A stretch of DNA of 64,000 nucleotides, taken from Dipteris shenzhenensis (taxonomy: Eukaryota). The DNA is taken from assembly GCA_047967505.1 (NCBI GenBank), contig CM106538.1; one strand, written 5' to 3'. Shown piece by piece: positions 35,471-63,980 of this stretch. A model generated the notes under the pieces. The model worked only from the letters and a program-made list of their open reading frames with translations, had not been told where the DNA came from and made no database searches. The translations under genes and the position numbers were made by a program. How positions within the stretch are numbered: position 1 is the first letter of the stretch; every line of letters starts with the position of its first letter.

Positions 35471-37740
35471 CATCATGGCTTCTAGCCACTGGTTGTTGCA
35501 TGAGCGTGTTTTCTGTTGATGGGTAGTTATTTAGAATGTTTGCTAAAATATTTCCTATGAATTTGGATTTCTACAATCATGGGCTTAAAATTTACACCAT
35601 CAATTGTTGATTCAAACCTTTGGGGTAAACTTGATGAAAAGAGACACCAACAAACTAATACTCTCAAAGTCATCAAAATGGTGAGAGTGAAGCCCATGTT
35701 GTTACACTTTTCAAGATTATCGCTTTCATCCTCTTGATCACTCATAAAATGATCAGACTTTATAATAAACTTAAGGCATAGAGTCATTCCAATTTCTTGC
35801 CATGGGCTCACATATTAGGGAATTTAAAGATGAACATATTTTGAATCCAATTCAAAAATGTAAGGTAAGGGTAAGAAGTTCCTATGCTTTAAAAATTTGT
35901 GAAGAGGAAGCACATGCATCTTAGTGACACCAATGTATATATTGCTTAATATTTGGTAGTGTAGTGCCTAATTTGAATCAAGACTGAATCTTAACCAACA
36001 TGATTTGAGGTAGGGCCGATGATTATACATTCCATTTTTTTAATAATCATATAAGCTTAGACTTTCAATGTTTCACATTTGACCTATGCCTTATTCGTAG
36101 GACTATCCCTGACATTGAAGTGGAGTGTGAAGGATGAATATTGGCATATGAGCTTATTCAATTTTAGTATTTACATGTTTCTTTTAACCTGTAGATTATT
36201 GCCAATATTAATGTGATAACCTTGATACCTTAGGGTGAATTTGGCTCGAACACATGTTGCAGACATCATGTCCCATGTTGATGATTGCTTTGGTTTATGT
36301 TCAATTATTGATTAGGTATTTGATGATTCACTTCTATAAAAGCGTATGTCATCAAAATACAAGTCATTGTGTGGTCCCATTTTCAATTGTTAGAGTTTGA
36401 GCTAGCATGGAAACCAAAACCAATCAAAGGTTCTATAGGCAATGGCATTGCCAGAATGCCCCACTAATGGTTAGCTTGAGGCTGTGGCCATTTAGATGCA
36501 CCAAAGCCTTTAAGGAAAGAAATACATAATTTCAACAATTGTAAGACTATTGTGGTATGAGTGCAAATTGTATAAGGCTATAAACTAGATAACTTAGGAT
36601 ATTAAACTTGCTTTTGTTGTTGATGATCTTAGGAAATTATTGTACACGTTTGAAGTACAACATAGCATGGTAGCAAGAAGTGTTGCAAAGACATATTTCA
36701 ATGGAACCTAGACATGGGGACAAGTAGATTTCTATTTCCAAGACAATGGAGAATGTACACCTCTTTGCGGAGAATTTATTGAAGAAGTTTGTAGTGGGCT
36801 TAGGCAACAAAGAATTTCTTGTTCTTTAATGATTAAGAGTAGTGGAGGGATAATTTTGCCTCAAATTGGTTAAGAGTGGTTATTCAAAAAGTAAGAGTAG
36901 CAGAGGGATAATTGTGTCTCAAATCGAGTAAGAATAGTGATTTAATAAGTAAGAGTGGTGGAGGGAGAATTATCCCTCACACTAGTATACCAACCAGTAT
37001 TTTGCAAAATTATATTTCACATCCTTCTATATATATTCCCTTCTCAGTGAGGTACCATATGGCACTTAAAGGATAGTGCCGAATCTCCAAAGTTTGAAGT
37101 GTGATTCCATCTCCAAAGAGGACCACATGCAATATGCATGCATGCGTGCAGACTACACATGTTTGAAATTCTATCTTTTTCAAAAAACTTTTCAAATCTG
37201 ATAATTTGTTAAAAGAAACACACACACACACACACACTCACTCAGGAGGTTCACCTCCTAGTATTTTAGTGTACCACGTGCATTCAAAAGGAGGGGTATT
37301 TTAATTTTGCTTTTGAAAAAAATTTAACAAGTTTACAATAACAAGAGGGGGGTTTTAATTCAACATTATAAAAAAAATCCATTAGTTTATAAGTAAAGAG
37401 GGGTAGTTTTATTAGGGAAAAAATGTAGTTGAGGGGTTTTTTAAATAACCTTTGAATGCACATGATTACTAGAATTTCTTAGTGCTGCACCCCCCGAGCA
37501 CACACACACACACACATGTATAATATATATGACATGTATACACAACACATGCAATGCTACAAAAGTATTTTCCCCAACTAAAAGGAATGGTAAGGCTTAT
37601 TCAAGATCGAATTCCAATTAAAACATTAAAATATTGAGATCTACAAACAATTAAAGAAAAGATAGGAACCCACCCTTGAGACTTGATAGAGTTAGGCCAA
37701 TAGTGGTACATTGCCTATGTTGGTAGTGGTTATAAACTTA
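35471..37740 (-). repeat. Segmental duplication unit D
   Basis: Direct repeat of 27848-29690 and 30450-30690. ORF 35527-35811 is a near copy of 27903-28190. Confidence 0.85.
37241..37498. mobile_element. Diverged MITE of the CTCGGGG family inside a (CA)n tract
   Basis: Termini CTCAGGAGGTTCA / TGCACCCCCCGAG. Internal inverted CACGTGCATTCAA / TTGAATGCACATG, as in the other copies. Flanks CACACTCA / CACACACA. Confidence 0.75.
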
Positions 37741-39851: not shown

Positions 39852-41067
39852 TGTTAACCCTGTGGCAACAAGGCCCAGAAGTCTAGTCTAGGACAACAAC
39901 TATGAGAGCATTGTGTGTGGAGGAGAGGCGAAGCTCCGGTTGTGATATCTTGAGCTTGAAAGATAGTATGATAAATCTGATAGCCAAAATCCTCTCTAGA
40001 AAAGATCCAATCATACTTGCAAAATTAGAATCTAGAGAGAGAGAAACTAAATCTAGAGAGAGAAATACTAAAAGCCTATACTTTCAGAGGTCCCTCCACT
40101 TTGTGTAGAGACCCAAAAGGTCCCCCTTAAAAGTGGAGAGACCAACATGTATAAATATCTCTCAATGGAATGAAGCTCCCACTCTTTGGGATTTAGTGTT
40201 CAAGCTCACTATTGTGTTCATGCGATTGATTTCCTCGAATTTTTTGAGTACATTTTTTTATATTTTAAAACTCTTATGGACGTCCAAAATGCAAAAAACA
40301 CGTTTTTAATAACCGGTCAATGGACATTGGTTGACTGGCTAAATGCCGCTTGGTGTATACAACACAGTGCGGTATTTGACTGAATATATTACACGGTGTA
40401 ATAAAACACCACACGGTGAAAGAAACACCTATTGGTAAACCCCTACACCAATTGGTATCAAATGCAATGATCGGTGAATCCCTACACCGAGCTGTGTATT
40501 AGGATTACACTAGCCGGTGTAGTCCATTGGGACACATGGTGCAGATGCATTGGCTAAAAAACATCGACCGGTGTGGCGACATACTGACTGGTATGTTGAG
40601 TTGGGTCTATAAAAGGCGAGCTTCGCAACATTTGTTTTCACCCTTGACCAGAATTCATCACTATCTTTTGATATTTCCCACATTTCGACTGTATTCGACT
40701 ACTTTCCCCCTTCTCCTTCAGGCTTTTGGTGAGCTTCTAGCCTTGCTTTTATTTTTAGTTAGGGCCGGGTGAAATGTTTTTGAGGTAAACCCCCCTTTTG
40801 GTAGTTGATATTAGGAGCACTTAATCTATTTTAGTTTTATCCTTTATTTTGGTGTGGTGACTTTCTCGTATGATATAATATTGTTATAGTTAAGATATGA
40901 CACTTTGTGGCTATTATGTGTAGAATATAAAGATGTTTATTTATGAAATGTGACTTATAATGCAACCTGCTAGGCTAACCACTCTTGTTAATTGATAAAT
41001 TAATCTTGTGAAAATGACTTTTAAACAAATTTTTGTCACTCTTAATGGTTTAATATACTTATAAACA

Positions 41068-45025: not shown

Positions 45026-47830
45026 GTGGTAATTGAAAAGTATCATAGTGATGTATCAGGCATCGATACCATCCACTTAATAAAATGGCCCATTGCACAA
45101 ATAACCTTTTTAGATGGAACTTCATTAAGAATCAATGACACCATGAATTTTCCAAGTGGTTCTAGGCAAGAGCACATGGAAGATGAGGACCCAAATGAAA
45201 AATCCACATAAAAGAGGCGTTACTACATGATAAAGAGAAAAGCTAAAAAGCATGGCATGCCATTAGCATCATCTAGACTCACAAGGGATGCAGTCACAAA
45301 AGTATCTATGATTGATTGTTGTAAACAAAATTGTTGTCAATTTGCCGATCATCAAATGATATCCAAATTACGCATAGAGTATTGGGACCAAAGTTTGGAG
45401 GCTCGCACCAATTATATATATGACACTCTTGGGGTTGCTTGTCGAAAAGATGACAATGGGTAGTTCAAATATGTCTTTTCATTGAATGGTATGCAAGTTT
45501 GTTGTAGAGCATGGTATTCCAAAAACAACATTTTATCGATACAGGGAGCAATTTGAAATTGGTATATGAAGGTGCATCAATGGTAATAAAGGAATCGTGC
45601 GGAGAGGTTGGGACCACACAGAACTGGGTAGAGCCATAATCCAAGATTTTGTGGATAAAAATTCTGAGCATATGCCACACAAAAGTAGAACACTTCAGGA
45701 TGGATCAAGGGAAACACAGTTGGTGATACCGGATGTATACAAGCAGGTTGATATCCTCTATGAGTTTAACATGCAGTTAAAGCATCGTTTGGGTTGTAAG
45801 GAGATGTCAACTTCCACATTCAACCATATATGGAACTCTGAATTCAAGCATGTAACTTTGTCAAAAACAAGTGAATTCTCTAAGTGTGGTTTATGTAGTG
45901 CAGTCAAGGCTCAGCTTGCAGTGACAACATGCCAAAATGAATGTAATAAGTTGATGGAAGATAGAAGAAAGCACGTGTTACAACAAAAAAGTTGTTAAAA
46001 TGTGTACTACACTTGGCGCAGATTTTCTGAAATGTATCCTCAGACATACTTGTGCATTATCCATGATAAGATGGACCAAAAGAAGACAGCCATCCCTAGA
46101 TTACGTAATCGTTCAAAGGACATTGAAAAATCCTTTCAGCTCCCAATGGCTTTGACTTTCATGATAACACATGGACATGGTCAAGGATGTTATGGTCACT
46201 TTTCTTTATCCTTCTGGCCGTCGGATCCTAACTTCACAATCGGTTCATTGGCTTTGTGTTTGAGAAATCTTGAAAGATTCGATAACCATGCACTTGGAGA
46301 TTTGGTACATGATGGGATGCCAAGGTCTGACAACGCTCTGCTAAATGCACTAACCTCAAGAGAAGCATTGGATTCTCACTATGTTTCTAATGACAAGCAA
46401 CAACTTCATCTTGGAGCAGTGGGTGGAACATTAAAAGACCTTGGACTTGGAAGTTCCCATCAAGAAAATCCTTATAAGAAACTACCCGAACACCTATTGT
46501 TGCAGTTGGATAATTGTGGTTCTGAAAACAAGAATAGGTACTTGTTTGCATACCTATCATTACTTGTTGCTCGAGGGATTTTCAAGTCAATTAAATTGGG
46601 ATTCTTGATGGTTGGGCATACACATGAGGATATTGATGCAATGATCAGCAGGTTTTCAGAGAGGTTAAGAACTAGCCAAACATTGACATTTGCACATCTC
46701 ATGGATACTTTTAGACAATGTGAGGAGTCTTCTCCAATGCCATTTTTGGTAATGGAAGTCCCTGATTTCAAGAGCTATGTTGATGGATGCCTATGCGATG
46801 GGCAAGATGCTTTAGTGGGACACTCAAAGCCTCTCCAATTTCGGTTCTTTATGCGAAATGAAGCTCCTATCATGCAATATAAAGTGCATCCATGATCATT
46901 AGATTGGCAACCAAGTGAAGGTGGCATTGAGTTGTGGAAGAGACATCCGGATGGTCATCCAATGCTACCAAGTGGAGAGCCACCTTGTGTACCCATGTTC
47001 CAGTATGTGAAGGATCACTCAGATGTGATAGTTGGTATCAAGGAGTATGGACACTTTTGGGGAAAATGGGTGCACCTACAAGGTCCAAAAGCATCTTTCA
47101 CAAAGTTTTACAAGCCGGTAGTGAAGTACTGAAGAACATGATTAATGAGCTTGATAAACCAAACAATAGTGTAGAGGGCATGTATGAGAGATTTTGGCCA
47201 AAGATGCAACATATTGATTGTGTGCAAGTAGTTGATAATGAAAACGATGAGTTTCAAGGAATTGAAGAGTTGAATGATCACTACTGTGGACCTCAAAGGA
47301 AAAAGCCAAAACAATCATTTGATCTAATGGTTGATGTACAAAAAGGACACTTTCTTTTGGTCCGGACCAGCAGAAAAATTTACCCAATTTGGCTAGGCAT
47401 TGCTCAAACTGATGTACAGAAGGATAATAAATCTAAAAATTTCAAGAAGGTTTTCATACAATATTGGGCACCTATATGCAAAAGACGCAATGCACAAATT
47501 GAGGAGGTGTCTGTAGATTGTTGGAACAAGATTTGGATGTGCAATAAAGGTGATCCTCCACGTTGGGAATCTGTTGATGCTATTGTATGGCCATGGGTTC
47601 CAAAAGGTAACCTCTCAAAGAAGGTTTTCTCGAAGAGTAGCAACCTCCCCATCAAGGTGAAGATACCAACCATTACACGCAAGCGAGCTTTATCTAGTTT
47701 GTCTCATAGTACAGATTCCAACTCTGATGCTGAGTCCACAATGGATGGAAAACATTGAATGTTACATAATCACAACCCCTCAAAAATTCCCAAATTATTA
47801 GGATTTTCCCAAATTCTCTAATATGGTGTT
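45026..47830 (+). mobile_element. Sola-like (DUF7869-type) transposon: fragmented transposase plus right terminus
   Basis: FSKCGLC, IIHDKMDQ, LQLDNCGSENKN and FLMVGHTHEDID in ORFs 45597-46895; C-terminal domain 47137-47758. Terminal TTCCCAAATTCTCTAATATGGTGTT ends at 47830, directly against LTR sequence. Confidence 0.82.
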
Positions 47831-48397
47831 CCCTCCTCTTCCTCCCTCTCTTCTCCTCCCTCCTCCTCCTCCCTCCTCCTTCCTCCCTCCCTTCTCCTCC
47901 CTCCTCCTCCTCCTCCCTTCTCCTCCATCTCCTCCTCCTCCCTCCTCCTCCTCCTTCTTCCTTCTCCTCCCTTCTCCTCCTCATCCCTCCTCCTTGTCCC
48001 TCCCTTCTCCTCAACCCTTACCCCTCGAATCCGCGAAGGAGACTAGCTTTCCACTCCTCAACCTTGGACTCCTCCTTAACCCTGCAACCCCCTCTGAACC
48101 GTGGAACTCCTAGTTAAATCTCTCAACCCTATCCCCACTTCTAACCGTGAAATCCCCTTCTAAATCCTTGAACTCCCGTGGAGGTGAGAGCCTCCATCAA
48201 TCGTTATAATCAAGCCCTCTTTCTCATTCATAAATGCATGAGATCTACTTTCCATGCTTTAGTCTACACCTCTTAGCGGAACATGACCCGAGGACCTATG
48301 CTACACTTGTGAACACCTATGCTACAACAAGCAACGACACGATTGTAGGTGACCAACAGCCTCGGAACCTACACTTGGGTAAAATAGGGACAACATT

Positions 48398-48729: not shown

Positions 48730-49757
48730 TGTCCACCACCACCACCACCACTTTTTCCATCAATCCCCCCTCACCACCACTTTTTCCGTCACCCCCTCCC
48801 CTTCCATCTCCATCTCCACCTCCCATCATCTTCCTCCCCACCACCTCCACTTTTTTCATCCATCCCCCACTCAAGGTAACCATATCCCTACCTCTCTCTA
48901 CACCCCATCTCCCCTTTTTCCCCTCCCCCTCCATCTTCCATCTCATCCACCACCATCCAATCTCCACCATCTCTCTACCTCTCTCTACACCCCATCTCCC
49001 CTTTCTCCCCTCCCCCTCCATCTCCCATCTCCTCCTCCACCCCCCAATCTCCACCATCTCTCTACCTCTCTCTACACCCCATCTCCCCTTTTTTTCCTCC
49101 CCCTCCATCTCCCATCTCCTCCACCTTCTCTCTACCTCTCTCCACATGCCATCTCCCCTTTTTCCCCTCCCCCTCCATCTCCCATCTCCTCCACCACCCC
49201 CCATCTCCTCCAACCCCCATCTCCATCACCCTCCACTCCACTATCTCTCTACCTCTCTCTATCCCCCTCCACCTCCACCTCCCTTCTCCCGCACCCCCTC
49301 CACCCCCACCTCCTTCCCCCCCTTTCCCTCTTTCCCCCCCATCTCCACCTCCACCCCCCACTCTCTTCCCCCCCACCTCCACCACCCATTTCCCCCCCCT
49401 TTCCCTTTTTCCCCCCATCTCCACCTCCACCACCCATTTCCCCCCCCTTTCCCTCTTTCCCCTCCATCTCCACCTCCACCCCCCATTCCCTCCCCCCCCA
49501 CCTCCACCACCCATTCCCCCCCCCCCTTCCCTCTTTCGCCCCCATCTCCATGTCCACCCCCCATTCCCTTTCCCTCCAGCTCCAGCTCCACCCCCCCCCC
49601 CTTTTCCTCTTTCCCCCCCCATCTCCACCTCCACTCCCCCTTCCCTCTTTCCCCCCATCTCCACCTCCACCCCCCCTTTACCCCCTCCACCCCCCCCCTT
49701 TCCCTCTCTCCCCCCCATCTCCACCTCCACCCCCCCTTCTCTCTCTCTCTCTTCCTC

Positions 49758-49789
<32 letters not shown>

Positions 49790-49835
49790 TTTCCCTCCCT
49801 CCCTCCCCAGCAGTCCCCCCTCCCCCACTCTCTCT
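48730..49835. repeat. C-rich polypyrimidine low-complexity tract in the gypsy leader
   Basis: ~1.1 kb almost without G on +. ~87-bp units (CATCTCTCTACCTCTCTCTACACCCCATCTCCCCTTT), then CCCCATCTCCACCTCCACC units. Confidence 0.9.
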
Positions 49836-51119
49836 AATCCCCAGGGCCATGGAAGGCCTTGGGCTGTGACTGCCCTGCCAGCTAGGCACGGTGCCTGTGC
49901 AAAGGTGGCAGTGCCCACCTGAAACAAAGCCCCACCTGCGCACCACGCGGCGATGCCCAACGCTCGCCAGCCTTAGCCTTAAGGCTTTAAATTCATCCCC
50001 CCCCCTCTCAAAAAAAAAAAAAACACCTAAGCCATTGCCCACTGACCCCCCCCTCAGAAAACAAAGGGGGTTAAAGTAACCCTAAAAACTAACCATAGTT
50101 AGGTTAGTTGAACTTAGGTTAGGTTAACTGACTATAGGGCTAGATTGAGTTAACTGTGTATCAATTAGTAATTCACTTTAGTTAATTGGGTTAACTACAG
50201 TCACACTAGGTGATTCAGTTAGATAACTAGGTTAGATTAAGGCCTAGTACAACAACTAAGTCCAAACTAACTAGCAGTTAGTGCACAACACTAGTTAGCT
50301 CAAAGGTCTAGGACCATTCAAACTTGGCCCTAAAGACAAAAGGGCCCCTAAAATCCCCTAACTTTGAGGGTCCATATCTTGCCTGTTTGGGACCCAAATT
50401 GGACCCAGATTGTGAAGCACAACTTCACATATGAACCATTAAGCTATGGGAAATTTTTCTAACCAATCCCACACCATTTAGGGATCCATAAACACGTTAA
50501 TTTGTGCCTCCATGTGGGTGACTTTTTCGCACTAATTCACTCATAAGATTGCGCCAAGACCTCCGATTGACAATTCGTCTGCACCGGCAAATTTTCCCAC
50601 TCACATGAACAATCCTAGGCACGTTTTTAACACAACAGTTCCTATGACACTAACCAACTCTAACCCCCCTAACAATTTTGACTCCTTTTTTGGGAACCCA
50701 TATCACGGCCGTTTAAAGAACAAATTGGATCCGGATTGAACCCAGATTTCATGCATGTAATTAAGATCTATTGTAAATGAAGTGTTTCGACGTGTTTAAC
50801 TATCAATTTCAGGCTCGGGTAGTTGCCTAATGTAGGCACTGATTTTGACCTGCCGCTTGTTTATTTTTTACCATTTTCGGGTCCACGAATGTCGAAATCA
50901 TAATCAGACTTCGCAGTCATATGCACCCACCTAAAAGTCACAAATAGGACTTGTTTCTGCACCTAAGATCATGAAAAGACTAGAACCTGGCTACTTCCGA
51001 GAGCTTTTTTCGACCCTCGCCGCTCTTCAAAAATTCAACCTCTCACCATCAACAAGCAGCATGGAGGAAATTACAATTGAAGAAGCAATAAGTAGCAATG
51101 ATCAAATTCCTTTAGAACA

Positions 51120-54100
51120 CCATAAATAACGATGCAACCGCAACAACAACAACAATGGCAGACGACACTTTGGTAAATTGGAAATGCCAAAGTACAATGG
51201 ATGAGGGGACCCCCCCAGGTTCCTTCAACTCTTCGACGTAGCATGTTGTGTTAGCAGCAACTAGTCAACTGAAACCAACACCGCTTGGTTCCTGATGGCC
51301 CTAACCGATGAGGCTTCGGAATGGTACCTCGACCTTCTCATAGAGGAGAGAGCCACATGGGCACTACTATCTGACCAGTTCAAAAGAATATTCCAAATAG
51401 AAAGGCTACAAGATGACCCCGTATTACAACTCGGCAATATAGATATTCACAAGAAATTAGAAAAGGTCAGAACATACTTGGGAAGAATGAAAAGATTAAT
51501 AGCAAAATGTGATCCCCATCCGGATGACAAGTACCTCATAGCATGGTTCATCTCTGGCTTGAAAAAATTCATTTGCAAGGATATGAAAAAAGTCAGCTAT
51601 GCACATTTTAGCGACGCTCATGAAGCTGCAATTGACATTGAGGATGGCATGATCGATTTTGACAGTGACAGTGATGGCTATAAATCAAGTCATCGTGACA
51701 AGAAATCTTCAAAGAAGGGAAGCACTTCCCACAAAAATCGCACCACTGAAGACAGTGTGGAAGCCATGGCCCTAAGAGTAAAAGAAGAAATGATGCAGGC
51801 CATCGAGCAAAAGTTGCATGTCTCTCAGCCACCACAGTACCCACAGAGAGAAAATATTTGGTGCCCACTTTGTATGGCCAACCATACAGCCAATGAATGC
51901 CCAATCTTGAGGAACAGACTCAACCCACCAGAAGTGGCTTAGCCCCCTCGCTTATGGTGCCCCATTTGCAATGCTACAAGGCATGATGTAAATACTTGCT
52001 TCTACAATATGAGGGTAGCACAACCCCAGCCCCAACAATAGCAACAGCCACCGCAAATCCCAGTGTACAAACAACCCCGGGACTGGCATCCAATGCATAA
52101 GTGCCACGTCTCAACCCAAAACTCTCGGTGAGAACACAAGTGGCTCAACTAATGAGGAATCCCAATCCTCCGCAATGTCCATGGGCTCCCAATCTTGCTC
52201 CACTAATTCCGGTGCAACAACTCCAAACTGAAGAGCAGGAACCTCACTATGAGTATGAAACAGAATACCCTATGTACTACATGGATGGTGCTGAAGGACT
52301 CATCCCAGTATATGCAAATCAAGTAAGACCCACCACATATTGAACACCCATCAAGTGTTTTGGTTGTGGAGAAAACCACTACATAGTAGAATGCCCACAC
52401 AATGGTAGCCCCACTTCATTCCAACCTGTGTGCAGGGAATGCGGAGTTGGGCATGCTTGAATGGATTGCCCACTAAGAACAACCACAGAAGTAAAACCTG
52501 AAGTACCCCTGGGCATGATAAGTGTGGAAAATCACAGTGTGGCAACACCAAGTGTGGCATTAGAGCCGGTCTTGATCATAACAAGACAACAGAAAGAAGC
52601 GGCGTGGCAAAAACTCCTTTCCGCTCAAAAAGCAAAGAGCCCTCTAGCAAAACAAGCCATGCCAATCCCACAACGCAGTGACATCATGCCTAGCACATCC
52701 ACGGAAAGTGCCACCCAAGGAGCTAAGGAAGCATACCCCAATGCTGAAACTGAAAAGACACACTACCAAGCCTTGAAGCAATGGGTTCAATAAGAAGAAG
52801 GCAGACAAGATGGCAGTAGCAGAGGTCTGAGCACTATCAACACCTAGCATTGACACATTGATTGATCCCAACAACTTCCAAGAGGTAATAGAGCAACATG
52901 CAAAACATCCCAAGTTGGATGGCACCACACTAGCAAGCTTGATAGTCACGATGCCAATTAGGACCTTACTAAGAAATTGCCCTACAATGTAGGAAAGTTT
53001 CAAGGAATGGATCAAATCTTCACAATACTTCCCCCCACCCGAAGAAGAGGAAAAGAAAATTTCAGTAAAATTCGGTGCTCGAGATGACATAAAAAATGTA
53101 ACCATCCCGCTGGAGCATAAAGCCTTTGGTCAATACCCAATGATAGTAGACGGCAGAGCCAAAGTAAACATTTTGGCAAGAGAGCTATATGAATGGGGTC
53201 TACCTGTAATGCAAAAGTCCACATTTAACATCCACCTAGCTAACCACACGAAAATGAAGCCATTAGGTATCATTGACAATGTGTCAACAAAAATTGATGG
53301 AGTAAGATTCACACTCTAGTTTACTATCTTGGATCTTCCCAAGGGTGCCACAGCATACCAGATATTCTTGGGAAAACCATGGCTTCGAGAAGCGTCGGTA
53401 CTCCATGATTGGGGCACCAATAGGATCACCATCCAAAATAGAGAAACTACTGTAAAGATAAATCTAGGAACAGGGGAAATCAAGCCCACTATTGCTAGAA
53501 ATGTTGAAGACACTTCTTCCACTACAGCCACCAGTCATACATCCCTTGAACCTACCAATGCACAAAAGCCCATAGAAGGGGATACACAAAGTGACATCAA
53601 CAATTGGATACAGACGTTGGCTACAATAGATAACTGTAAAACAACACATCTAATGTTGCCAAATGTGGATGCCCAAATGATACAACTAGGAGCACCAATC
53701 TGGGACGATGAATCAAAAGTAGTGGAAATGCCAGTCCTCATGACAGGCATTGAATGGGATAGTGACCTTGAAGAGTCCATAATAGAAGGCTACGGTGCCG
53801 ACATAGAGTGGGATCTAGAAATAGAAGCTAATAATGCATCCTTGGAAGGCCAAGTATTTGACAATGACTTGGCAATCCTACAGGCACTCATGGCCATTGA
53901 ATTCCCCAAGATCAACCCTCCATCATAATCCAAAAGCAACCGGTCTAGGAAAAAGAAGGAGGGTGTACAACGCCACAAGGCCAAGATAGAGCATTTCAAT
54001 GAATTCGAAAGAATGCAGACAAGAGTGGTAGAATTGTACTTGACTAAGCCCACAAAAGCACTTGAGTCCCCAAATTTTAAATGGGATCCGAAAGGGCTTG

Positions 54101-56202
54101 GAGGTCTTTGTATGGCCGAGGAGCCACTCCTTGGGAGTGCAACTCCTATTGAAAATCCATCACTAGTCTCACTAAGCAAAAAGCTTCGAAAGTTCAAACC
54201 CAATGTGAGAATGAAGGGTGAAAAGGTGAATAGTAACAAAAAAGAAGAACAAGGGAACACAAGTGAATTGGACCAAACATATTCCAGTGGAGCTAGCAGC
54301 CAAGCAAGCACCTCAAAGTGCCATGAAGGCCTAAGGGAAGTTCTGGATTACTTCAAAGACTACACTAGAGGAGAAGCAACAATAGCAATGCCTAGGCGAG
54401 TCAGGGAATCAGAGCTCAAAGAAACAGAGAATATTGAGGATACCCAAGTTTATGAAGGACCCACCGAGACAAGTAAAATGAATCTTGCCTTGAACGGTGA
54501 AGAAGAAAAGCCTACGTACATCGGTGAACAGCTCACTCTAGAACAAGAAAATGAATTGAAAGCATTGCTAATAAAATATAGAGATTGCATGGCTTGGTCC
54601 TACAAAGAAATGAAAGGAATTTCCCTAGAAGTTGTAGTACATACCATACCAATAAGGGAAGGATCCAAACCAAAGGTATGTGGACCTTACAGGACAAATC
54701 CCAAGTATGGCACCCATGTCTATGAAGAACTAGAAAAACTAATGGAGGTTGGTTTCATTTATGAGATCGAGCATACCGATTGGGTGTCACCAATTGTGAT
54801 TGTTCCTAAGAAAAACAAGAAGCTAAAAATATGTGTGAATCTCAAGAACGTCAATGCAGCAACAATCAGATATCATTATCCCCTACCATTATCTAAAACA
54901 GTTTTAGAAAGGGTAGCAGGATTTGAGGTACAACCAAGTACAAATTGCACCTCAAGATCAGGCAAAGATAGCATTTGCCACAGAATGGTGTATTTTTGCA
55001 TACAGAGTCATGCCATTTGGCTTATGCAATGCCCCATCTACTTCTGAAAGGGTAATGTACACCGCCTTCAAGGAATTTCTCAACAAGTTCCTACAAGTCT
55101 TCCTCGACCACTTGTGCATGCACTCAAGAAAAAAGGATCACTTGAAATGCCTTGAAGAAGTGCTTAAAAAATGCAGGGAGTATGGAATCTCTTTGAATCC
55201 TCTAAAATGCCAATTCTTGGTCACACATGGAGTAGTCTTCAGACACCTAGTCTCTCAACATGGGATTGCAACTGACATGGATAAAATAAAGATCATCATG
55301 GAACTTCCCCCCTGCTAAATGCCAAGGAAATTCAAGTCTTCATGGGACATGCTGGATACTATAGAAGATTCATACTGAGGTATGCCATGATTCCAAGGCC
55401 CCTATACAAGCTCCTAGTCAAATTCATTCGGACAGAGGAATGCGAACAAGCATTCGAAACCCTCAAGTGGAGATTGATCATAGCCTCTATTCTAATGGCA
55501 CCAAATTGGGACATAGACTTGCATGTACATATTGATGGTTCCAATTATGCAGTAGGGAGTGTGTTATGTCAACCAGGCAAACACATCAAAGACTACCCAA
55601 TATACTTTGCAAGCAGATAGCTAAATGATGCGGAGGTGAATTACACCACAACAGAAAGAGAAGCCTTGGCAATGATCTACAGTGTGAAGAAATTTGGACA
55701 CTATCTATTGGCTACTGACTTTATCTTCTACATAGATCATCAAGCCTTATTATATCTTGTGAATCGGCCATGTACCACAAGACGGATCACTCGATGGCTT
55801 CTACTGCTACAAGAATTCGATTTCAAAATCGTGGTGAGAAATGGAGCTCAACATTTCATTGCCGATCACATGTCACGATTGAGGACAAGAGAAGAGCCGA
55901 AAGGAATAGAAGATGACCTACCAGATGCCGCATTATTTCAAATAGATGCTGTGCCTGATTGGTGTGCAGACATCATTGGGTATTTAATGGCAGGAAGACC
56001 ACCTCCTAAAATGAAAGCAATGGATGCTAGGAAACTAGTTCTAAAAGTTGCACCCTATCAACTCATTGCAGGACAATTATACAAGATGGGCAAGGACGAG
56101 GTTTTAAGGAGATGTGTGATGCCATATGAGATCATGCCAATCCTCAGTGAAGCACATGAAGGCATTGCAAGTGGACATTTCCAAGGGGAAGCAACAGCAA
56201 GA
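51120..56202 (+). pseudogene. Gypsy gag-pol (capsid, zinc knuckles, protease, RT, RNase H, integrase N-terminus; integrase core deleted)
   Basis: ALTDEASEWY...WALLSDQFKRIF; MIVDGRAKVNIL (~53140); WVSPIVIVPKK; YRVMPFGLCNAP; YTTTEREALAM; HEGIASGHFQGEATAR, after which integrase homology stops abruptly. Many stops and frameshifts. Confidence 0.92.
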
Positions 56203-56682
56203 AGTCCTTCTCGCAAAATACTAAATTAAGCATATAGGACGAATGCCTACCTCACTAGTCATGCATAGCGCACCCACACGTTTCAAGCACCATGAATAAA
56301 TTGCACAAATAAAAGCCCCAAGAGATACTTGTTTTAAATCCACACACACAGCACCGTCATCAAAAAGAGTCAAATGCATTAGCCACTCACAAAAGAAATA
56401 GGCACTCTTGGCACATGAAACTATTTTGGCACTGTCAAACTGGGACCTGATTCATGTGTGCAATGCTAGGGTGAAGACAGTCCATTAAGATGGGAAAAAG
56501 GTCTACAATGCCATCGACAAAGTGACACCATGCCAAACGGCCTAAGCCTCAACCTCAACAACCCTCCTCAAATCACCAACATGAAGAAGGACACAGTCCA
56601 GAATCACCTACCTAGAGGTCAACACCAAAACGACCACGGCTAGTGGTCCTAGACAGTGATACTGATGATCAAATAAATGCAA

Positions 56683-58932
56683 CATGCTAAGAAGAAATGC
56701 CACAGAACCAAGGGATACTAGAGGCAGGAGAAATTGAGCCAGAGTAATTGACTATGCAAGATGTAGGTTCAGAACACCTTGAGGACCAGACCAACAAACA
56801 GCTAGCAACAGATGGAACAATATAGCTTGTATGGCCACGAGTCTCAACGTTCACCATGTTACCCAATGCTTACAACTTCTTGCAGTCAAAGGGACTAGGT
56901 AGTCTTTTTAAGAAGCTAAAATCCTTCTCACCAACACTTGCTATGACAGAATACATTTGTCAATTCATAACATCATATAAAAGCAAAGAGTCTAAAGCTT
57001 GCATACACCTCCACATTGGGTAAGTATAAATATAAGTGCACGGAGTGGCAAAATCAAAAAGCTATAATTTCCAAGCTGGAAATTCAACTACTGGGTCAAG
57101 CCGATGACGATGCAGAGGGGTCAGCACAAGATCTTTTGATACAAGGCATCACTACATTTGCAAATCAAAATGTTACATGTAGTAACTGGTCTTGATTGGA
57201 CCAAACCAGTAAGCACAAAGAATCTCCGAGATCTATGCCAGCACATGGATGAAGATGAGAGGAATGTGTTATGTCTCTCAGTGCATGCAAATCTCATACG
57301 GGTAAAGGCTGATGCAATACTAGTTACATTATGAATGCTTGATGGGAAGCCTCCCTCTTCGGGTAATAGCCGGACTCCTACCTTTACTACAACAATCACC
57401 AGCAACTTCCATGGGATACAACTCCTAGAAAAATACAAAATTAAAGCTGTCAATGCCTACCAGAAGTGACAGGGATCTGCTAGAGGAATATGTGGTATAC
57501 CTTCAATCTAATCTCCCCTATCTTGCCACTCTCTATTCTGATCTACTCATAGCACTACCTAACTCTCGGGGGGGTCACTCATCATATGTAACCCTATCAC
57601 GTGAGTTCAACAGAAGGATATTTTTTATTCCTAAAATTTACATAAATAAATATACATAAGGGACTATTTAAAATAGTTTCAGAAAAAATTTACAGATTTG
57701 TATAGAAAAGGGGTACATTTTATTAATGAAAGAATTTACAGATAAGGGATTTTAAATATAGGCCTTGAACGCACGTGATATAGAGGGTTTATACATATTG
57801 ACCCCCCCGAGACCTAACTCCAGTACTATCCTCCATACCTTTCTAGAAATCCACACTAATCCATATTCCTTGCCATGCCTCTTTGCCCATGCCTCTCATC
57901 ACTATCGCCTAATCCAAGAATCTAAATCCTATCATCCATTTACACCTAACTTTTTTCCAACACTTGACAATCCATCCCTTGAGGATTCTCAAGTTACTAA
58001 ATCAATTTGTCCTGCTCTCCCTCCACTTTCCTCCAACATCCCTACTAACTTCTCAAATTCACTACTTGCTTCGAGACCTCAATATTTTCCCCTACAACAT
58101 CTTCCTTTCCCCCAAGACCATATGTCCCTCCAATCTCCCTTGAGTTTTCAATGGAAGACACCATTAATGATTCCATCAATAAGCTTCAAGAATTGGATAA
58201 TCCAATTCACACACCCACAAGGGAGTTGCAATAAGATACAGATAGGATTACCATGCATGGTAATCCCATTGGTGGTTTTTGGAGGCAATACCCAAACATG
58301 CAGTCAAGAGGAGGATGGGACCTCTCGAGAATTTCAATGAGTATCCACCAAGCACAAATCACTCCAAACATCATCATGAAATTAGAGCCGCAGCCTGCTT
58401 GGCATATACCAAAGCTGCTTAATGAAAAGTACCTCCTTGAATACATGCAGGCTCCATCTTCCTTTCGCACGCATCCCACATTTGATGCGGTGCTGCAAAT
58501 GCACCTCGCAATTGGCTGTTAATCAATAGAAATTCTAAAATCAAATGGACAAGCTAGGAAACACTCATTAGAGCCTTGGACAGACATTCATAAATTATGC
58601 AAAGCAGTTATTATGACAAAACACTCAAGGAAAGTGCAAGATACAGTGAAGCCTTAGCAGTCATCCTGCAGGTGTCCCTCACCATTGATGACCATTTACT
58701 CAACCTCAGCTTCAATCCAAATCAACAGATAGATGCTCAAACAACAAGTCGCCTCTTTCAAAGGGCCATATACCTTCAAGGGCGTTATGTGTGTTTGTTT
58801 GAAGAAATGGTTGACACTAGCTTCTTAAAAACTGAGCAAGCAATCTACGGTGTTCATGGACTACAAGGGAAAAATCGACAAGAGCTCGCTCCATCTATCA
58901 CTGCCACCATCTTTACCATACTCATTGGGTAA
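56683..58932 (+). pseudogene. Extra ORF downstream of pol (copy 2), internally deleted and MITE-interrupted
   Basis: LVWPRVSTF...FLQSKGLGSL (56826), NQKAIISKLEIQL (57052) and MGSLPLRVIAGLLPLLQ (57342) match copy 1. Further sense ORFs at 57453, 58253-58522 and 58597-58932. Start coordinate approximate. Confidence 0.75.
57565..57811. mobile_element. MITE, 247 bp, CTCGGGGGGGTCA termini, 8-bp TSD
   Basis: Near-identical to 26207-26452. Perfect TSD ACCTAACT at 57557-57564 and 57812-57819. Confidence 0.95.
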
Positions 58933-59010: not shown

Positions 59011-60336
59011 TGTTAACCCTATGGCAACAAGGGCCAGAAGTGCAGTCTAGGACAACAACTATGAGAGCATTGTGTGTGTAGAGTAGAGGCGAAGCTCCAC
59101 TTATAATATCTTGAGCCTAAAAGATAGTATGATAAATCTTAAAGGATGAGGATAGCCAAAATCCTCTCTAGAAAAGATCCAATCATACTTGCAAAATCAA
59201 GATCTAGAGAGAGAGAGACTAAAAGCTTACACTTTCGGAGGTCCCTTCACTTTGTGTAGAGACCTAAAAGGTCCCCCCACTGTGTGTAGAGACCTAAAAG
59301 GTCCCCCCCAAAAGTGGAGAGACCAACATGTATAAATATCTCTCAATAGAATGAAGCTCCCACTCTTTAAGATTCAGTGTTCAAGCTCACTATTGTGTTC
59401 ATGCGATTGATTTCCATTGCGTCCATGCTCTCTTACACTATCATGTTCTAGCATGCCCTTACCCTTATACTCTCTACCCTTGAACTCCCTCCTCCTTCTC
59501 CTTCCTCCCTCTTCCTCCCTCCTCCTCATCCTCCTCCCTCCTCCTCCATCTCCTCCTCCATCTCCTCCTTCCTCCCTCCCTTCTGCTCCCTCCTCCTCCT
59601 CCCTTCTCCTCCATCTCCTCCTCCTCCCTCCTCCTCCTCCTCCTTCCTCCCTCCCTCCTCCTCCTCCTCATCCTTCCTCCCTCCCTTCTCCTCCCTCCTC
59701 CTCCTCCTCCCTTCTCCTCCATCTCCTCCTCCTCTCTCGTCCTCCTCCTCCCACCATCTCCTTTCCCTTCCTCCTCCTTCCTCCCTCCCTTCTCCTCCCT
59801 CCTCCTCCTCCTTCCTCCTCCTTCCTCCCTCCCTTCTCCTCCCTCCTCCTCCTCCTCCCTTCTCCTCCATCTCGTCCTCCTCCCTCCTCCTCCTCCTTCC
59901 TCCTCCTCCTCCCTTCTCCTCCTCCTCCCTCCTCCTCCTCCCTCCCTTCTCGTCAACCCTTACCCCTCGAATCCGCGAAGAAGATTAGCTCTCCATCCTC
60001 AACCTTGGACTCCTCCTAAACCTTGCAACCCCCTCTGAACCCTGGAACTCCTAGTTAACTCTCTCAACCCTATCCCCACTTCTAACCCTAAAACCCCCTT
60101 CTAAACCCTTGAACTCCCGTGGAGGCGAGAGCCTCCATCAATCGTTATAATCAAGCCCTCTTTCTCATTCACACACGCATGAGATCTGCTTTCCATGCTT
60201 TAGCCTACACCTCTTACCAAAATAGCACCCGAGGACCTATGCTACACTTGTGAACACCTATGCTACAATGTGCAATGACACGACTGTAGGTGACCAATAT
60301 CCTCGAAACTTGCACTTGGGTAAAACAAGGACAATA
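59011..60336 (+). repeat. 3' LTR (1326 bp) with an internal (CCT)n tract
   Basis: Matches 39852-40234 and 47831-48395. CT-rich tract at ~59485-59950. Confidence 0.93.
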
Positions 60337-61975
60337 ATCTTAGGAATCAGAATGTGGCAATTGGGATTCCTAAGCTACATTTTCTTGGAAAAGTTTGCGA
60401 AGCATGTTGCTTCGGCAAACCAAAGCAAACCAACTTTGGCAGAAGCACGTCTCGAGCACGAGGTATTCTTGATTTGATACATACAGCTGTATGGGGTTAT
60501 GCCCAAACCTGCAGCATCAATGGTCACATTATTACTTGACTTTCATCGATGACTATAGCTGATATTGTTGGGTTTACTTTCTGAAAGAGAAATCTGAAGT
60601 GTTTTCCAGCTTTCAAGAATTCAAAGCCATGGTAGAAAACCAGACAAGCAGAAAGATCAAAGTCATGAGATCAGATTGAGGAGGTGAATACATCAGCTTT
60701 AGCATTCATAAACTTTTCCAAAAGTCACGGCATTCGAAGACAATTCACTTGTGCAGACACTTCTCAGCAGAATGCAAGAGCTGAAACGAAGAATGGAACT
60801 TGAGCAGACAATGCTAAAGCAATGCTTAGTGAGAAGAATCTTCCGAATCAGTATTGGGCAAAAGCAATAGCCACTGCAAACTATTTGCTTAATCAGCTTT
60901 CTACCAAGCTGATTGAGGGTATGACACCTTATGAAGCATTCACTGGACACAAGCCACACATTGGGCATCTCCACATATTTGGTTGCATAGCATATGCCCA
61001 CATACATGATGATCATTGTAGGAAATTGGATGCGAAGTCATGCAAATGCATTATGGTTGGCTACAGTGAAGAAAGCAAAGCATACAAGTTGTATGATCCC
61101 ATCAATCGCAAGGTCATTATCTCCATAGATATAATCTTTGATGAGGAACCAGAATGGAAAACCTCAAACAAACAGGAGATAGACGCACCGATTTCACGGT
61201 CATCCATAGAAATGGTTGATGAAGAAGAGCAAGAATTGCCAGTAACACCCCAAGCAGAGCCACAACATCTCAGATGATCTACTAAGGAAAACGGACCTCC
61301 AGCCAGATTGAGATATGCTTAGAAAGGCAAAGCAATTCAGGTTGAAACCACCAACTATGCTCTTATGACTACCATCATAGCTACAGAAGAGCCAGTGTAC
61401 TTTGAAGATGCCATAGACAAGCCAGAATGGCAAACTGCTATGAATGAAGAAATGGATGCTTTCTATAAGAATAATACTTGAGAATTATGCGACCTTCCAC
61501 CAAGAAAGAAGGCCATAGCAAAACAAATGGGTACACAAAGTGAAGTATAATCCAGATAAAAGTATTCAAAGACATAAAGCCAGACTAGTTGCAAAAGGAT
61601 TTGCACAGCAATATGGTCAAGATTATGATGAGACTTATGCTCACAGTTCTTGATATCACTAGCAATACTCAGCAGATAGAATGTGTATCAGCTCGATGTT
61701 AAGAGTGCATTTCTCAATGGTTACCTAGACGAGGAAGTCTACATGCAACAACCAGCAGGTTATGTTTAACCAGGAAAGGAGAATAAGTTTTGCCATCTCA
61801 AGAAAAGTCTCTACGGCTTAAAGCAAGGACTCAGAAGTTGGTACAACAGAATCGACAAGTATCTTGCTGATCTGGGATACATGAAGTCCAATGCAGATCA
61901 TACTCTCTACTACAAAGTTCAAGGGGAAGACATTACTACTGCACTTTTGTACGTAGATGATCCGATTATGACCAG
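60337..61975 (+). mobile_element. Ty1/copia fragment, part 2 (integrase, RT), 3'-truncated
   Basis: [68 protein letters not shown]. Confidence 0.92.
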
Positions 61976-62878
61976 ACCTCATTGAGATGATCTATTTTTG
62001 GAAGATACATTGGCTTTTGTTGAGGCTGATCATGCCACGACTAAATTGAAATTTCTCAAACACTTGAGAAGGCATGCAAAAGGAAAAATGATGTAGAAGA
62101 ATGCCAAAGGAGAGAAGACTAGGCATGAAAGCATGCAAAATTTGTAGGAGAGAAAAGATGTGGTAAGAATATGGCTATGAGACCCATGGAAGACATAGTG
62201 CATGCAATTAGAATTGTGTGAGAAGCTATAGTTCGCTCCTTTTGTCCATGGTCCGACATTAGCTCATTGTATGCCATTTTGGAAGACACTCCTTATAATG
62301 AACTTACATGACTTTTACTTGTTTTGTAATGGAAAGTTTATATTGAAAACTTTCTTAGTTTGTCTATTGGCATTAAATGCTCACGTTACTTCATAGTATG
62401 TGCATTCGCATAAAAGTAGATATTTTGCACGAGTGCATGTGCATTCTTCGCATACATCACATAGAGGTGACTTATGAGTTTTTATCCACGTGGATGCATA
62501 TGACATAGCCCACATCCCCGCATCCTTCATAGCGTGCATCCTCACATCTAAACGTTCCATTGCACCCATCGAAACATCCAAACTCACATGTCCGTAAGTG
62601 CAAGTGCGTGCCCTTGATAGTGGTGTTCCTGATTTTATGCCGTCATTATTTTGCAGATGGCAGTCCAATGCAAATGCTTAGAATGTGGCGATGAAAACGA
62701 GTTTGCAGTTAGCCATGGCAACGAAGACACGCCGACCGGACCGACTGCACCAATCGGGGCCGACTACGTGCTTCTTGCAGCCTATATATACACACCACCA
62801 GCAACCTTCCATTCACAATCAACGCCTTTTCACAATCGATTTGCTCTCAGCTACGTTCTTCATCTCCAATCAGCCGCC

Positions 62879-63980
62879 ATGGAGCGCTCGGGAGCTGCTA
62901 AGCACTTCATCCTTTCTGCTTTCGCCTTATGGGCTCTCCTGCCGGCTCTCGCTCGCGCCAACCCGGAGGGTAAATATTAGGCTTCTACTTTGCATAAGCC
63001 TTCCCTCTTCATGCAATAGCGTATACAAATATAATACATTGCTTTCTGCTAACCGATCGACGGCTTGTATTTTACAGTGGACGCTCTGATTGCATTCAAA
63101 AATGGGCTTACCGACCCGCAAAACGCCCTCGCCAGCTGGGATCCCAACCTGGTGGATCCCTGCACCTTCTTCCATGTGACCTGCGACGACAACAACCATG
63201 TCGTCCGAGTGTACTCATCTACCCACCACCTGTTAAACGCGCATTTAATTTGCTCCCTAATAAGTTTTGGCTCCTGATTCTGCATTTTTCCAACAGGGAT
63301 CTGCCCAACTATGGTCTTTCCGGTCCGCTCTCTCCACAACTTGCAAACCTTCCGTCTTTGCAGTCCCTGTGCGGCTTCCTCACTCTAGCTTCCCACCATG
63401 TGTATTCACCTTCAGTCAATAAGCTAAGCTAAGCGAAGCTTGTCACTCATTTGCTCTAACGATCTCTCTTGTCGCAGCTCCCTCTTTCTCAACCACTTCT
63501 CTGGGTCCATCCCCAAAGAATTCGGCAGTCTGCCCAACCTCTTTGCTTTGCAGCTCCAGGACAACGATCTCACGGGGCCCATCCCCTCTGAGTTGGGCAA
63601 TCTTTCCAATCTGCAGATTCTGTGAGTACAAATATTGGCCCTGGACTGTGAATTATTTTATGCACGACAAGCCATCGAATTTACCTTAGTCACATGACTC
63701 CTTACCATAACATTGCGTTTTCTCCCGCAGTCATCTCATGAATAATGGTCTCTCGGGCCCTATCCCAACGAATGGCGTTTTCTCCAGGTTCACTGCCGAA
63801 AGGTGAGCATGTCTTTCGCGAGCCACCTGAAAGTTGTATAACGATCAAGTAAAGGCATGCATGCTCTCCAGATGCCTGAGATTTCCGCATCTTGCTCACC
63901 ACCTCGTTTGTCAATCTGCATATTGCAGCTACGCAGGAAACCCTGGACTCTGTGGATCTGTGATCAACAAGCCATGTTAG
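62879..63980 (+). CDS. Secreted LRR-only protein, SERK/LRR1-ectodomain-like, 187 aa, 6 exons
   Basis: Exons 62879-62969, 63078-63210, 63297-63368, 63478-63621, 63731-63802 and 63929-63980 (91+133+72+144+72+52 = 564 nt), all GT-AG, open frame: [66 protein letters not shown]...[34 protein letters not shown]. Confidence 0.93.

Follow-up and report, generated by a model that had tools for sequence, protein, structure and literature searches.

Results

A decayed coding module follows the integrase in two broken Ty3/gypsy elements

Two retrotransposons in the stretch of DNA analysed here (64,000 nucleotides, hereafter the window) each carry a decayed coding module of the element downstream of the integrase and on the same strand as pol. 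The module was kept at the protein level while the lineages of the plus-strand element (A) and the minus-strand element (B) diverged until their synonymous sites were nearly saturated. It is a lineage-specific, sense-oriented extra module, probably derived in part from a protease. Elements A and B are old, broken Ty3/gypsy retrotransposons of a non-chromovirus lineage in a fern-like plant genome, and both copies of the module are long dead, inert relics from which no product is made now. The features are as follows; P0005 and P0007 are related sequences described below.

Element A
47832–48393, plus strand: 5′ LTR, as far as it can be aligned to the 3′ LTR (91.5% identical to 59770–60334)
51265–51942, plus strand: gag (Pfam Retrotrans_gag, E = 1.7e-8)
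53080–53454, plus strand: primary protease (alignment to the protease domains found in P0005 and P0007)
54757–56229, plus strand: RT, RNase H and start of the integrase (Pfam RVT_1, RT_RNaseH)
56505–56996, plus strand: block 1, N-terminal part of the module (tblastn to B 6554–6150)
56977–57090, plus strand: block 2, end of a charged helix-type segment (in another frame than block 1)
57158–57425, plus strand: block 3, protease-like C-terminal domain (frameshift near 57331; invariant motif 57330–57392)
57564–57812, plus strand: nested MITE of 249 bp, outside the module (terminal inverted repeats of 13–14 bp, 8-bp target duplication)
59770–60334, plus strand: 3′ LTR (pairs with the 5′ LTR; CT-rich tract upstream to about 59479)
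Element B
8075–9518, minus strand: RT and RNase H (Pfam RVT_1, RT_RNaseH; tblastn to A)
6856–8302, minus strand: integrase (translation; GPY/F-type motif at its end, then INGSRLK)
6150–6554, minus strand: block 1 (tblastn; longest open piece 6386–5817, 190 aa)
4744–6149, minus strand: middle region present in B only, Pro/Glu-rich, then charged helix-type (translation and composition; no HSP to A)
4630–4743, minus strand: block 2 (inside open piece 4905–4549)
4209–4489, minus strand: block 3, protease-like domain (frame change near 4430; open piece 4478–4209)
3451–3802, no strand assigned: 48-bp tandem array downstream of the module

Only pol is alike at the DNA level between the two elements (75.5% identity between the region A 54757–56229 and B 9324–8075; blastn found nothing outside pol), and the homology of A to B ends at 56215. 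This agrees with the first-pass annotation, which had described two diverged gypsy elements. Element A keeps only the start of its integrase, the rest being deleted, and lacks the approximately 1.4 kb that separates blocks 1 and 2 in B. Its primary protease contains one in-frame stop and reads D-G-R-A at the catalytic site in place of D-T/S-G-A; Pfam gave no match on the two ORF pieces of this protease. The 5′ LTR begins in a CT-rich low-complexity tract, and a candidate primer binding site lies just after it. The MITE nested in element A has a second copy at 26206–26453, 94% identical and with an 8-bp duplication of its own. Element B is without its 5′ part, no 3′ LTR was identified for it in the window, and its module shows at least four frame changes and many stops. 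The C-terminal 46 aa of its integrase match P0007 (E = 2e-7) and P0005 (E = 7e-6). Pfam searches of the element pieces and of P0005, P0006 and P0007 gave no chromodomain after the integrase, and no RNase H beyond the RT-linked one was found by Pfam in 46 + 14 pieces or in P0005, P0006 and P0007.

Three protein blocks are collinear in A and B

By tblastn we re-found the three blocks that had been reported as common to both elements. They are collinear, lie downstream of the integrase on the pol strand (plus in A, minus in B) and, in A, stand before the 3′ LTR, so that their placement after pol in sense orientation holds. Block 1 (B 6554–6150, A 56505–56996) was matched with E = 8.7e-7 in the whole window and 4.5e-9 in a small database; in its core (A 56826–56987), 21 of 54 residues are identical to B. 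Block 2 has 21 of 38 identical residues (E = 9.4e-5 and 2.9e-7, respectively). The core of block 3 (B 4322–4260, A 57330–57392) is identical at 19 of 21 residues (E = 0.008 in the whole window, 5e-6 in a further search), and the similarity continues upstream to B 4489 and A 57158 across the frameshift of A, with 38 of 93 aligned residues identical. A third copy of the blocks is absent from the window.

The extent of the module differs from what had been proposed. The span 56683–58932 does contain shared sequence, but it is too wide: sharing stops at about 57425, and beyond that point lie the MITE and the ORFs 57762–58340 and 58594–58932, for which neither B nor Pfam offers a match. A large open reading frame encoding a protein of roughly 1000 aa or more had been expected from joining the two copies. 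This joining is not supported, and a deletion in A or an insertion in B of about 1.4 kb separates them; the module spans about 783 codons in B (6554–4206) and about 307 in A (56505–57425), and its longest open pieces measure 190 aa and 74 aa, respectively. In the region found only in B, no frame has fewer stops than the others, which leaves it as candidate coding sequence only.

The blocks were conserved as protein

The tally given earlier for 17 codons of block 3 was re-derived exactly: 13 differ synonymously, 1 non-synonymously and 3 are identical, with 34 of 51 bases the same. Over the blocks, differences at codon positions 1, 2 and 3 number 40, 37 and 69, each out of 113. From block 1 to block 3, Nei–Gojobori pS/pN came to 0.65/0.47, 0.88/0.32 and 0.98/0.09; all these selection measures, made on only two copies, both broken, are biased by the choice of the blocks for protein-level similarity. 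DNA identity inside the blocks is 52–68%. Neutral simulations at the observed nucleotide divergence matched the amino-acid identity of block 1 in 15 of 20000 runs and that of blocks 2 and 3 in 0 of 20000. Codon counts, pS/pN and simulations thus agree with the past purifying selection claimed before. A separate, older origin of the blocks was considered on the basis of their higher third-position divergence and dropped, the gap between the blocks (69/113) and RT–RNase H (106/220) being modest.

Relatives carry a second aspartyl protease at the same place

Two relatives, of the same gypsy lineage by RT–RNase H, were available for comparison, P0005, which is one ORF of 1981 aa (59% identical in RT–RNase H), and P0007 from the fern Adiantum nelumboides (64% identical in RT–RNase H). 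In both, a coiled coil and then a second aspartyl-protease domain follow past the end of the integrase. Searched alone, the tail of P0005 matched gag-asp_proteas with 30.1 bits against a cutoff of 28.2, over positions 3–89 of the 92-position profile. The layout resembles that of the window copies, as the region starts at the same place after the INGS-K/R-LK end of the integrase and consists of a helical segment followed by a domain that has an h-h-G motif at its end; by manual count, about 105 residues lie between the helical segment and this motif in B, P0005 and P0007. The window copies differ from the relatives in an extra N-terminal domain (block 1) and, in B, a much longer middle. Block 3 moreover resembles the primary protease more than the second one of the relatives, and no catalytic motif is visible in the window copies. 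In the relatives the post-integrase module is in frame with pol, and in P0005 it is fused to it; the module of the window may therefore be an extension of Pol and not a separate ORF.

The possibility that block 3 is orthologous to the second protease of the relatives was examined and dropped. The whole tails of P0005 and P0007 gave no significant alignment to the module (P = 0.11; 4 of 100 shuffles reach the score) and tblastn of these tails against it found nothing. Orthology is unsupported because block 3 resembles the primary protease of P0005 and the tails do not align significantly.

Block 3 resembles the primary protease

BLASTP with block 3 picked the protease motif of P0005. By hhalign, block 3 aligned to a profile of four protease sequences with a score of 21.9 (P = 0.0033), which was reached by 0 of 200 and 0 of 60 column-shuffled profiles, and to the P0005 protease alone with a score of 29.0 (P = 1.4e-4, probability 52%, 69 columns). 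When 121 real 115-aa segments from six proteins were scored, the only two holding the P0005 protease came out on top with 29.5 and 28.9, followed by 17.2, and the median was 10.5. Segments over the second protease of P0007 scored 14.0–14.4, and none over that of P0005 was among the top twelve. In the hhalign alignment block 3 shows the C-terminal strand and the h-h-G-x-P/D-x-L motif of retropepsin in register with the rest of the domain, and the protease signal leans largely on this one motif of about 13 residues.

Other searches gave no protease. With E-values as high as 10 allowed, Pfam assigned no family to the open pieces of the module, and the block 3 pieces matched none of the retropepsin families gag-asp_proteas, Asp_protease_2 and RVP. 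With an HMM of the four protease sequences, hmmsearch aligned block 3 to the correct columns of the profile, though at -3.9 bits (E = 3.7); global hhalign of block 3 against the protease gave nothing, and the block 3 profile retrieved no retropepsin from the PDB sequences. Upstream of block 3, no frame of A or B contains a recognisable D-T/S-G-A motif, owing to decay or to ancestral loss, and hhalign sets W-K-Q of B opposite D-T-G. Retropepsin is a strand-rich fold; the AlphaFold model of block 3, built from a three-row alignment and of low confidence (pLDDT 62), is all-helical but too weak to weigh on either side. Judged from the profile alignments, the C-terminal domain is most likely derived from retropepsin. 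An origin of the module by tandem duplication of the element's gag–protease region was dropped, as all matches to A 51000–53600 had E > 0.1 and were not collinear.

Block 1 stands without detectable relatives

No relative of the block 1 ORF was found among 1.84 billion representative proteins. The single match listed, a bacterial repeat protein (E = 8.8e-4, 42 residues), was judged spurious. Word-index searches returned no accepted match of near length for the block 1 ORF, and for the block 3 ORF none among longer proteins. Pfam gave no match for block 1. ESM Atlas yielded sub-threshold leads for it, namely Transposase_32 on 17% of a cluster at 0.84 and an ATHILA ORF-1 cluster at 0.83. The AlphaFold model of the block 1 ORF reached a pLDDT of 36, and PDB sequence searches returned chance matches only.

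Discussion

A and B hold the remains of a sense module owned by the element and placed after the integrase. The explanation towards which the evidence leans, by a small measure, is that this module was composed of three parts and that its C-terminal domain came from the element's own retropepsin-type protease. Block 1 would be an N-terminal domain for which no relatives are detectable, block 2 together with the middle seen only in B a charged segment that forms helices, and block 3 a C-terminal domain of about 90–100 residues. We infer this three-part arrangement, and it matches the layout of P0005 and P0007, where a coiled coil and then a complete second aspartyl protease are in frame with pol. 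Probably the module was produced either at the C-terminus of Gag-Pol or by an ORF that follows closely behind. Its helical segment would bring copies together, and the protease-like domain would add a second protease; alternatively, as no D-T/S-G is recognisable, this domain may have served as a non-catalytic partner of the primary protease in the particle, for pairing or docking. The roles suggested in the first-pass annotation, as silencing suppressor or as movement or targeting factor, are conjectural. Tentatively, and with confidence clearly below that in the three-part module itself, we propose a history in which a fern gypsy lineage duplicated its own protease and put the copy behind a coiled coil after the integrase, at the end of Pol, and in which a sub-lineage then gained the N-terminal domain, without relatives in the protein databases searched, and lost the catalytic motif, leaving a pseudo-protease that was selected to regulate or dock the primary protease.

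The most serious competitor is an accessory protein whose separate fold has no kinship with proteases and which would act for example in host interaction or targeting, so that the likeness of block 3 would be a chance or convergent short motif. That Pfam, HMMER and PDB searches find no protease, that a catalytic motif is absent and that the low-confidence AlphaFold model is helical would all suit such a protein, as would the lack of relatives of block 1 in 1.84 billion proteins and two word-index searches; extra ORFs of this kind are reported to diverge strongly and, for the most part, to share no domains (PMC6317226). On the other hand, the block 3 profile singled out the protease segments among the 121 (P = 1.4e-4) and the relatives carry a protease domain at the same position; we regard a separate fold as rather unlikely.

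An env-like protein of the Athila type, membrane-anchored, with a coiled coil and made from a spliced transcript, is improbable. The place would fit, as env-like ORFs of non-chromovirus gypsy elements lie in sense orientation downstream of pol and ahead of the 3′ LTR (PMC7264820), and a charged helical segment is present. One borderline hydrophobic stretch lies near the C-terminus (Kyte–Doolittle 19-residue mean 1.63 in B and 1.51 in A), but it holds one Arg and three Pro and is also the best-conserved part, unlike a membrane anchor; by hydropathy calculation, all other pieces stay below 1.4 and an N-terminal hydrophobic segment is missing. The ATHILA ORF-1 lead from ESM Atlas is below the reliable range. 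A full-length match to a characterised Athila env-like family had been named as evidence against novelty; PF03078 has no match in the module, and the relatives have the module in frame with pol.

Capture of a host gene fragment, or the remnant of another element nested at the same place, is very improbable. LTR retrotransposons do transduce host genes in sense orientation (PMC7264820), but here the sequence stands at the same place and in the same order in two elements with near-saturated synonymous sites, no host-like homologue came from the word-index and 1.84-billion-protein searches, and the similarity to the gag–protease region of A was neither significant nor collinear. Finally, both copies are full of stops and frameshifts and the blocks are short, but chance similarity, or a neutral residue of shared ancestry without coding constraint, can be dismissed because the codon tally, pS/pN and neutral simulations contradict it, amino-acid identity being far above the neutral expectation at a DNA identity of 52–68%, and the collinear blocks reach E-values of 1e-5 to 1e-10 in searches beyond the whole-window scan.

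Plant gypsy elements commonly have additional coding capacity behind pol, and to almost none of it has a fold or role been assigned. The extra module described here may trace to a known enzyme, the element's own protease, and intact relatives exist. A shared post-integrase module with an apparent second protease copy appears to be an undescribed layout: the open-access literature searched contained nothing relevant on LTR retrotransposons with an additional or second protease domain, and the passages considered of PMC6317226, PMC7264820, PMC11963269 and PMC9289625 name no extra protease domain. If a second protease, active or inactive, were indeed fixed in a fern lineage, it would form a new class of acquisition beside the chromodomain, the extra RNase H, env-like proteins and AlkB, and would offer a handle on how particle maturation is regulated. 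Domain surveys that filter 'common' retrotransposon domains would miss such an acquisition; in one published survey, protease hits were removed as 'common' domains before the search for novelty (PMC9289625).

As the first-pass annotation had noted for Athila/Tat elements, extra ORFs are known at this place, and sense ones are a known feature of non-chromovirus gypsy elements (PMC7264820; PMC6317226). By the definition in PMC6317226, an eORF-3′F comes after the polyprotein coding region and before the 3′ LTR on the gag–pol strand, has at least 250 codons and is separate from the polyprotein. In position the module corresponds: in A it covers 56505–57425, with the integrase remnant (to 56229) on one side and the 3′ LTR (59770–60334) on the other, and in B it comes after the integrase, whose end is at about 6856. 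The strand corresponds too, all three blocks being on the pol strand in both elements. Open pieces reach at most 190 aa in element B and 74 aa in element A, which falls short of the length. The module thus shares place and orientation with the eORF-3′F and aORF-3S of the Athila/Tat/Ogre group and of SIRE copia elements, which belong to long elements with tandem repeats in the region from pol to the LTR, diverge fast and are mostly without known domains (PMC6317226; PMC7264820). It differs from them in that there is no frame of 250 codons here, that the module is fused to pol in relatives and that its conserved part looks protease-derived.

The env-like ORF of Athila likewise follows pol in sense orientation and includes a coiled-coil-like segment, whereas the module has no Pfam ATHILA ORF-1 match and only the one borderline hydrophobic segment. 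TRP28 ORFs of Retand, Grande and RIRE2 also occupy a long region between pol and the 3′ LTR with tandem repeats (PMC11963269), but these are antisense and belong to PF04195, while the module is sense. The TRP28 and PMD families had been suggested for comparison, and Pfam gave no match to PF04195 or PF10536 in the sense pieces of the module. In the Tat elements with an additional RNase H (aRNH), an extra enzyme-type domain likewise follows the integrase, and there is debate over its status as a component of pol or an ORF of its own (PMC13468544). The module contains no RNase H match; the duplicated enzyme here would instead be the protease.

Two gypsy elements share a coding module downstream of integrase

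The module, a decayed coding region 3′ of integrase in pol orientation, belongs to the 3′ portion of element A, a plus-strand Ty3/gypsy element, and recurs in element B, a diverged gypsy element on the minus strand. The first-pass annotation had reported three collinear blocks of protein similarity between the two elements; these proved to be genuine, to keep the same order and to read on the strand of pol in each.

Features of elements A and B and of the shared blocks (N- to C-terminal)
47832-48393 and 59770-60334, plus strand: aligned LTRs of element A, mutual identity 91.5%
51265-51942, plus strand: gag of element A (Pfam Retrotrans_gag)
9518-8075, minus strand: RT and RNase H of element B
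~6856, minus strand: integrase end of element B, GPY/F-type motif, then INGSRLK
6554-6150 (B, minus) and 56505-56996 (A, plus): block 1, E 8.7e-7 (whole window) and 4.5e-9 (small database)
4743-4630 (B, minus) and 56977-57090 (A, plus): block 2, 21/38 residues identical, E 9.4e-5 and 2.9e-7, respectively
4322-4260 (B, minus) and 57330-57392 (A, plus): block 3, 19/21 residues identical

The ungapped core of block 1 has 21 of 54 residues in common. Similarity around block 3 continues upstream to position 4489 in B and 57158 in A (38/93 aligned residues identical), through points where A has a frameshift (~57331) and B changes frame (~4430). No additional copy of the blocks was found within the window.

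Between its LTRs, element A contains gag, a protease, RT and RNase H; its integrase is broken off past 56229 and most of it is missing. The primary protease has D-G-R-A at the catalytic site (53130-53160), where relatives have D-T/S-G-A, and its domain carries an in-frame stop. Element B is without its 5′ part, and no LTR of it was found in the window. The sole DNA-level alignment between the elements joins 54972-56215 of A to 9324-8075 of B (75.5% identity). Among named proteins, the RT-RNase H piece is closest to two hypothetical proteins from the fern Adiantum nelumboides (64-68% identity). Neither a chromodomain nor an additional RNase H was found in two scans, of 46 and of 14 open pieces, or in three related polyproteins; A and B are therefore classed as non-chromovirus elements lacking the Tat hallmark.

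Long CT/GA-rich low-complexity tracts (47820-48050, 48800-50081 and 59479-60019) open both LTRs of A, that of the 3′ LTR being longer, and also occur in the 2.9 kb from the 5′ LTR to gag. Tandem arrays lie 3′ of the module in B (3451-3802, 48-bp units) and A (59239-59328, 30-bp units); other gypsy lineages with a long pol-to-LTR region are reported to carry such arrays (PMC11963269). The stretch immediately 5′ of the 3′ LTR of A (59011-59415) is 83.5% identical to 39852-40234, and no recognisable LTR or module adjoins the latter copy.

The blocks were maintained as protein

At the DNA level, blocks 1-3 of A and B are merely 52-68% identical. In 20000 simulations for each block, with the observed number of substitutions placed randomly, amino-acid identity came up to the observed level in 15 runs for block 1 and in none for blocks 2 and 3. 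Differences at codon positions 1, 2 and 3 numbered 40, 37 and 69 of 113 in the blocks, and 56, 20 and 106 of about 221 in RT-RNase H. Synonymous/non-synonymous proportions (Nei-Gojobori) were 0.65/0.47, 0.88/0.32 and 0.98/0.09 for blocks 1, 2 and 3, values from which a numerical dN/dS would be unreliable because synonymous sites are near saturation and which, like the other measures of selection on the blocks, are inflated because the blocks were found through protein similarity. As a qualitative conclusion, it is safe to say that the blocks were maintained as protein during divergence of the two lineages. The past purifying selection proposed in the first-pass annotation is borne out by the simulations, the codon-position bias and the Nei-Gojobori proportions, and its count for 17 codons of block 3 (13 synonymous changes, one non-synonymous, three identical) is exact.

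Third positions differ at 12/74 sites in the N-terminal integrase piece (8054-8302) versus 106/220 in RT-RNase H (8358-9020), a hint of mosaicism or recombination in the past of A and B.

Both copies of the module are relics

Both copies are non-functional. In element B, the module (6554-4206) has at least four frame changes and many stops; in element A, blocks 1 and 2 are in different frames and ~1.4 kb present between them in B is absent, reflecting either loss from A or gain by B. No frame of this middle stretch of B has fewer stops than the rest, and part of it has a charged, helix-type composition. A protein of 1000 aa or more, as first proposed, is unsupported because the shared module comprises ~783 codons in B and ~307 in A. 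The span originally assigned to it (56683-58932) takes in unrelated DNA, namely a nested MITE and two ORFs (57762-58340 and 58594-58932) that lack both a counterpart in B and a match in Pfam. What stands of the proposed extra ORF is its membership of the element, its position after pol and its sense orientation; its size does not, and the module is possibly an extension of Pol rather than an ORF of its own.

Other features of the window
57564-57812: MITE, 249 bp, nested in element A, with terminal inverted repeats and 8-bp target duplication
26206-26453: second MITE copy, 94% identical to 57564-57812, with its own 8-bp target duplication
252-2123, plus strand: ORFs of 335, 97 and 189 aa, just past the 3′ side of element B
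10021-11442 and 61975-63847: segmental duplication, 86-95% identical
15333-16861 and 18884-20403: direct-repeat pair, 92.7% identical
27844-29693 and 35468-37236: direct-repeat pair, about 86% identical
60804-61277: copia-type fragment (SH3_retrovirus, E 1.5e-31)
12637-13107: copia-type fragment

In both MITE copies the terminal inverted repeats (CTCGGGGGGGTCA type) are 13-14 bp long and the 8-bp duplications, of a length typical for hAT-type elements, are perfect. The 335-aa ORF has a Pfam match, DUF7869 (E 1.3e-48), and probably represents a gene of DNA-transposon type. Exon-like pieces of the segmental duplication read, in translation, like the N-terminus of a putative SERK-like LRR receptor kinase. 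Each copy of the duplication has element A or B as a neighbour, no more than a few kb away. The two direct-repeat pairs are likely LTR pairs of other elements.

Origin of the module

No piece of the module matched a Pfam family at E thresholds up to 10. For the block 1 piece (190 aa), no true relative was found among 1.84 billion representative proteins or by word search, and its AlphaFold model was unusable (pLDDT 36); the block 3 piece had no relative among longer proteins. Two database polyproteins related to the pol of A and B, P0005 (a single continuous ORF of 1981 aa) and P0007 (from A. nelumboides), extend beyond the integrase end with a coiled coil followed by a second aspartyl-protease domain. 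The P0005 tail alone matched Pfam gag-asp_proteas over nearly the full length of the profile (30.1 bits, cutoff 28.2). Past the second protease, both tails share a short motif, W-V/I-P-K, which is repeated and has A-Q-G in front of it; no family was assigned to it.

BLASTP showed a resemblance between the invariant motif of block 3 and the C-terminal motif of the P0005 protease. Using hhalign, the A/B profile of block 3 scored 21.9 against a four-sequence protease profile (P 0.0033), a score matched by 0/200 and 0/60 column-shuffled profiles, and 29.0 against the primary protease of P0005 alone (P 1.4e-4, probability 52%, 69 columns). In a control with 121 real windows (115 residues each, taken from six proteins), the sole two holding this primary protease scored 29.5 and 28.9, followed by 17.2 (median 10.5). 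The second protease domains of P0005 and P0007 showed no resemblance to block 3 in this control, and their whole tails gave no significant alignment with the module. Because these favourable hhalign and window tests stand against a non-significant HMMER search with a small protease profile, a PDB sequence search that returned no retropepsin and the lack of a visible D-T/S-G motif in either copy, a protease origin of block 3 is considered likely yet unproven. Global hhalign likewise gave no match to protease, and the AlphaFold model of block 3 was helical and of low confidence. Resting on two relic copies and two database relatives, the comparison suggests that the module is probably partly protease-derived.

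For a module in the sense position after pol, the textbook would suggest an env-like protein (PMC7264820). Hydropathy gave a single borderline segment, which coincides with the conserved motif and contains an Arg and three Pro, with no hydrophobic stretch near the module start, and a match to ATHILA ORF-1 was absent. Capture of a host gene is unlikely, given that position and order are common to deeply diverged elements and that protein searches found no host-like homologue. Comparison of the module with the gag-protease region of the element gave no support for its being a tandem copy of that region, and chance similarity of the blocks is excluded by their E-values and the neutral simulations.

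Comparison with known extra coding regions

Elements of the Athila/Tat/Ogre group often carry sense extra ORFs 3′ of pol, which are described as highly divergent, with shared domains mostly absent; section 13 of PMC6317226 names the plant mobile domain, Transposase_28 and Athila ORF-1. Antisense TRP28 ORFs occur in Retand elements (PMC11963269) and an extra RNase H may follow integrase in Tat elements (PMC13468544). No extra protease domain came up in section 13 of PMC6317226, in the passages cited from PMC11963269 and PMC13468544, or in full-text searches of an open-access collection. One survey discarded protease hits as 'common' ahead of its search for new domains (PMC9289625), and a duplicated protease would therefore escape such a screen.
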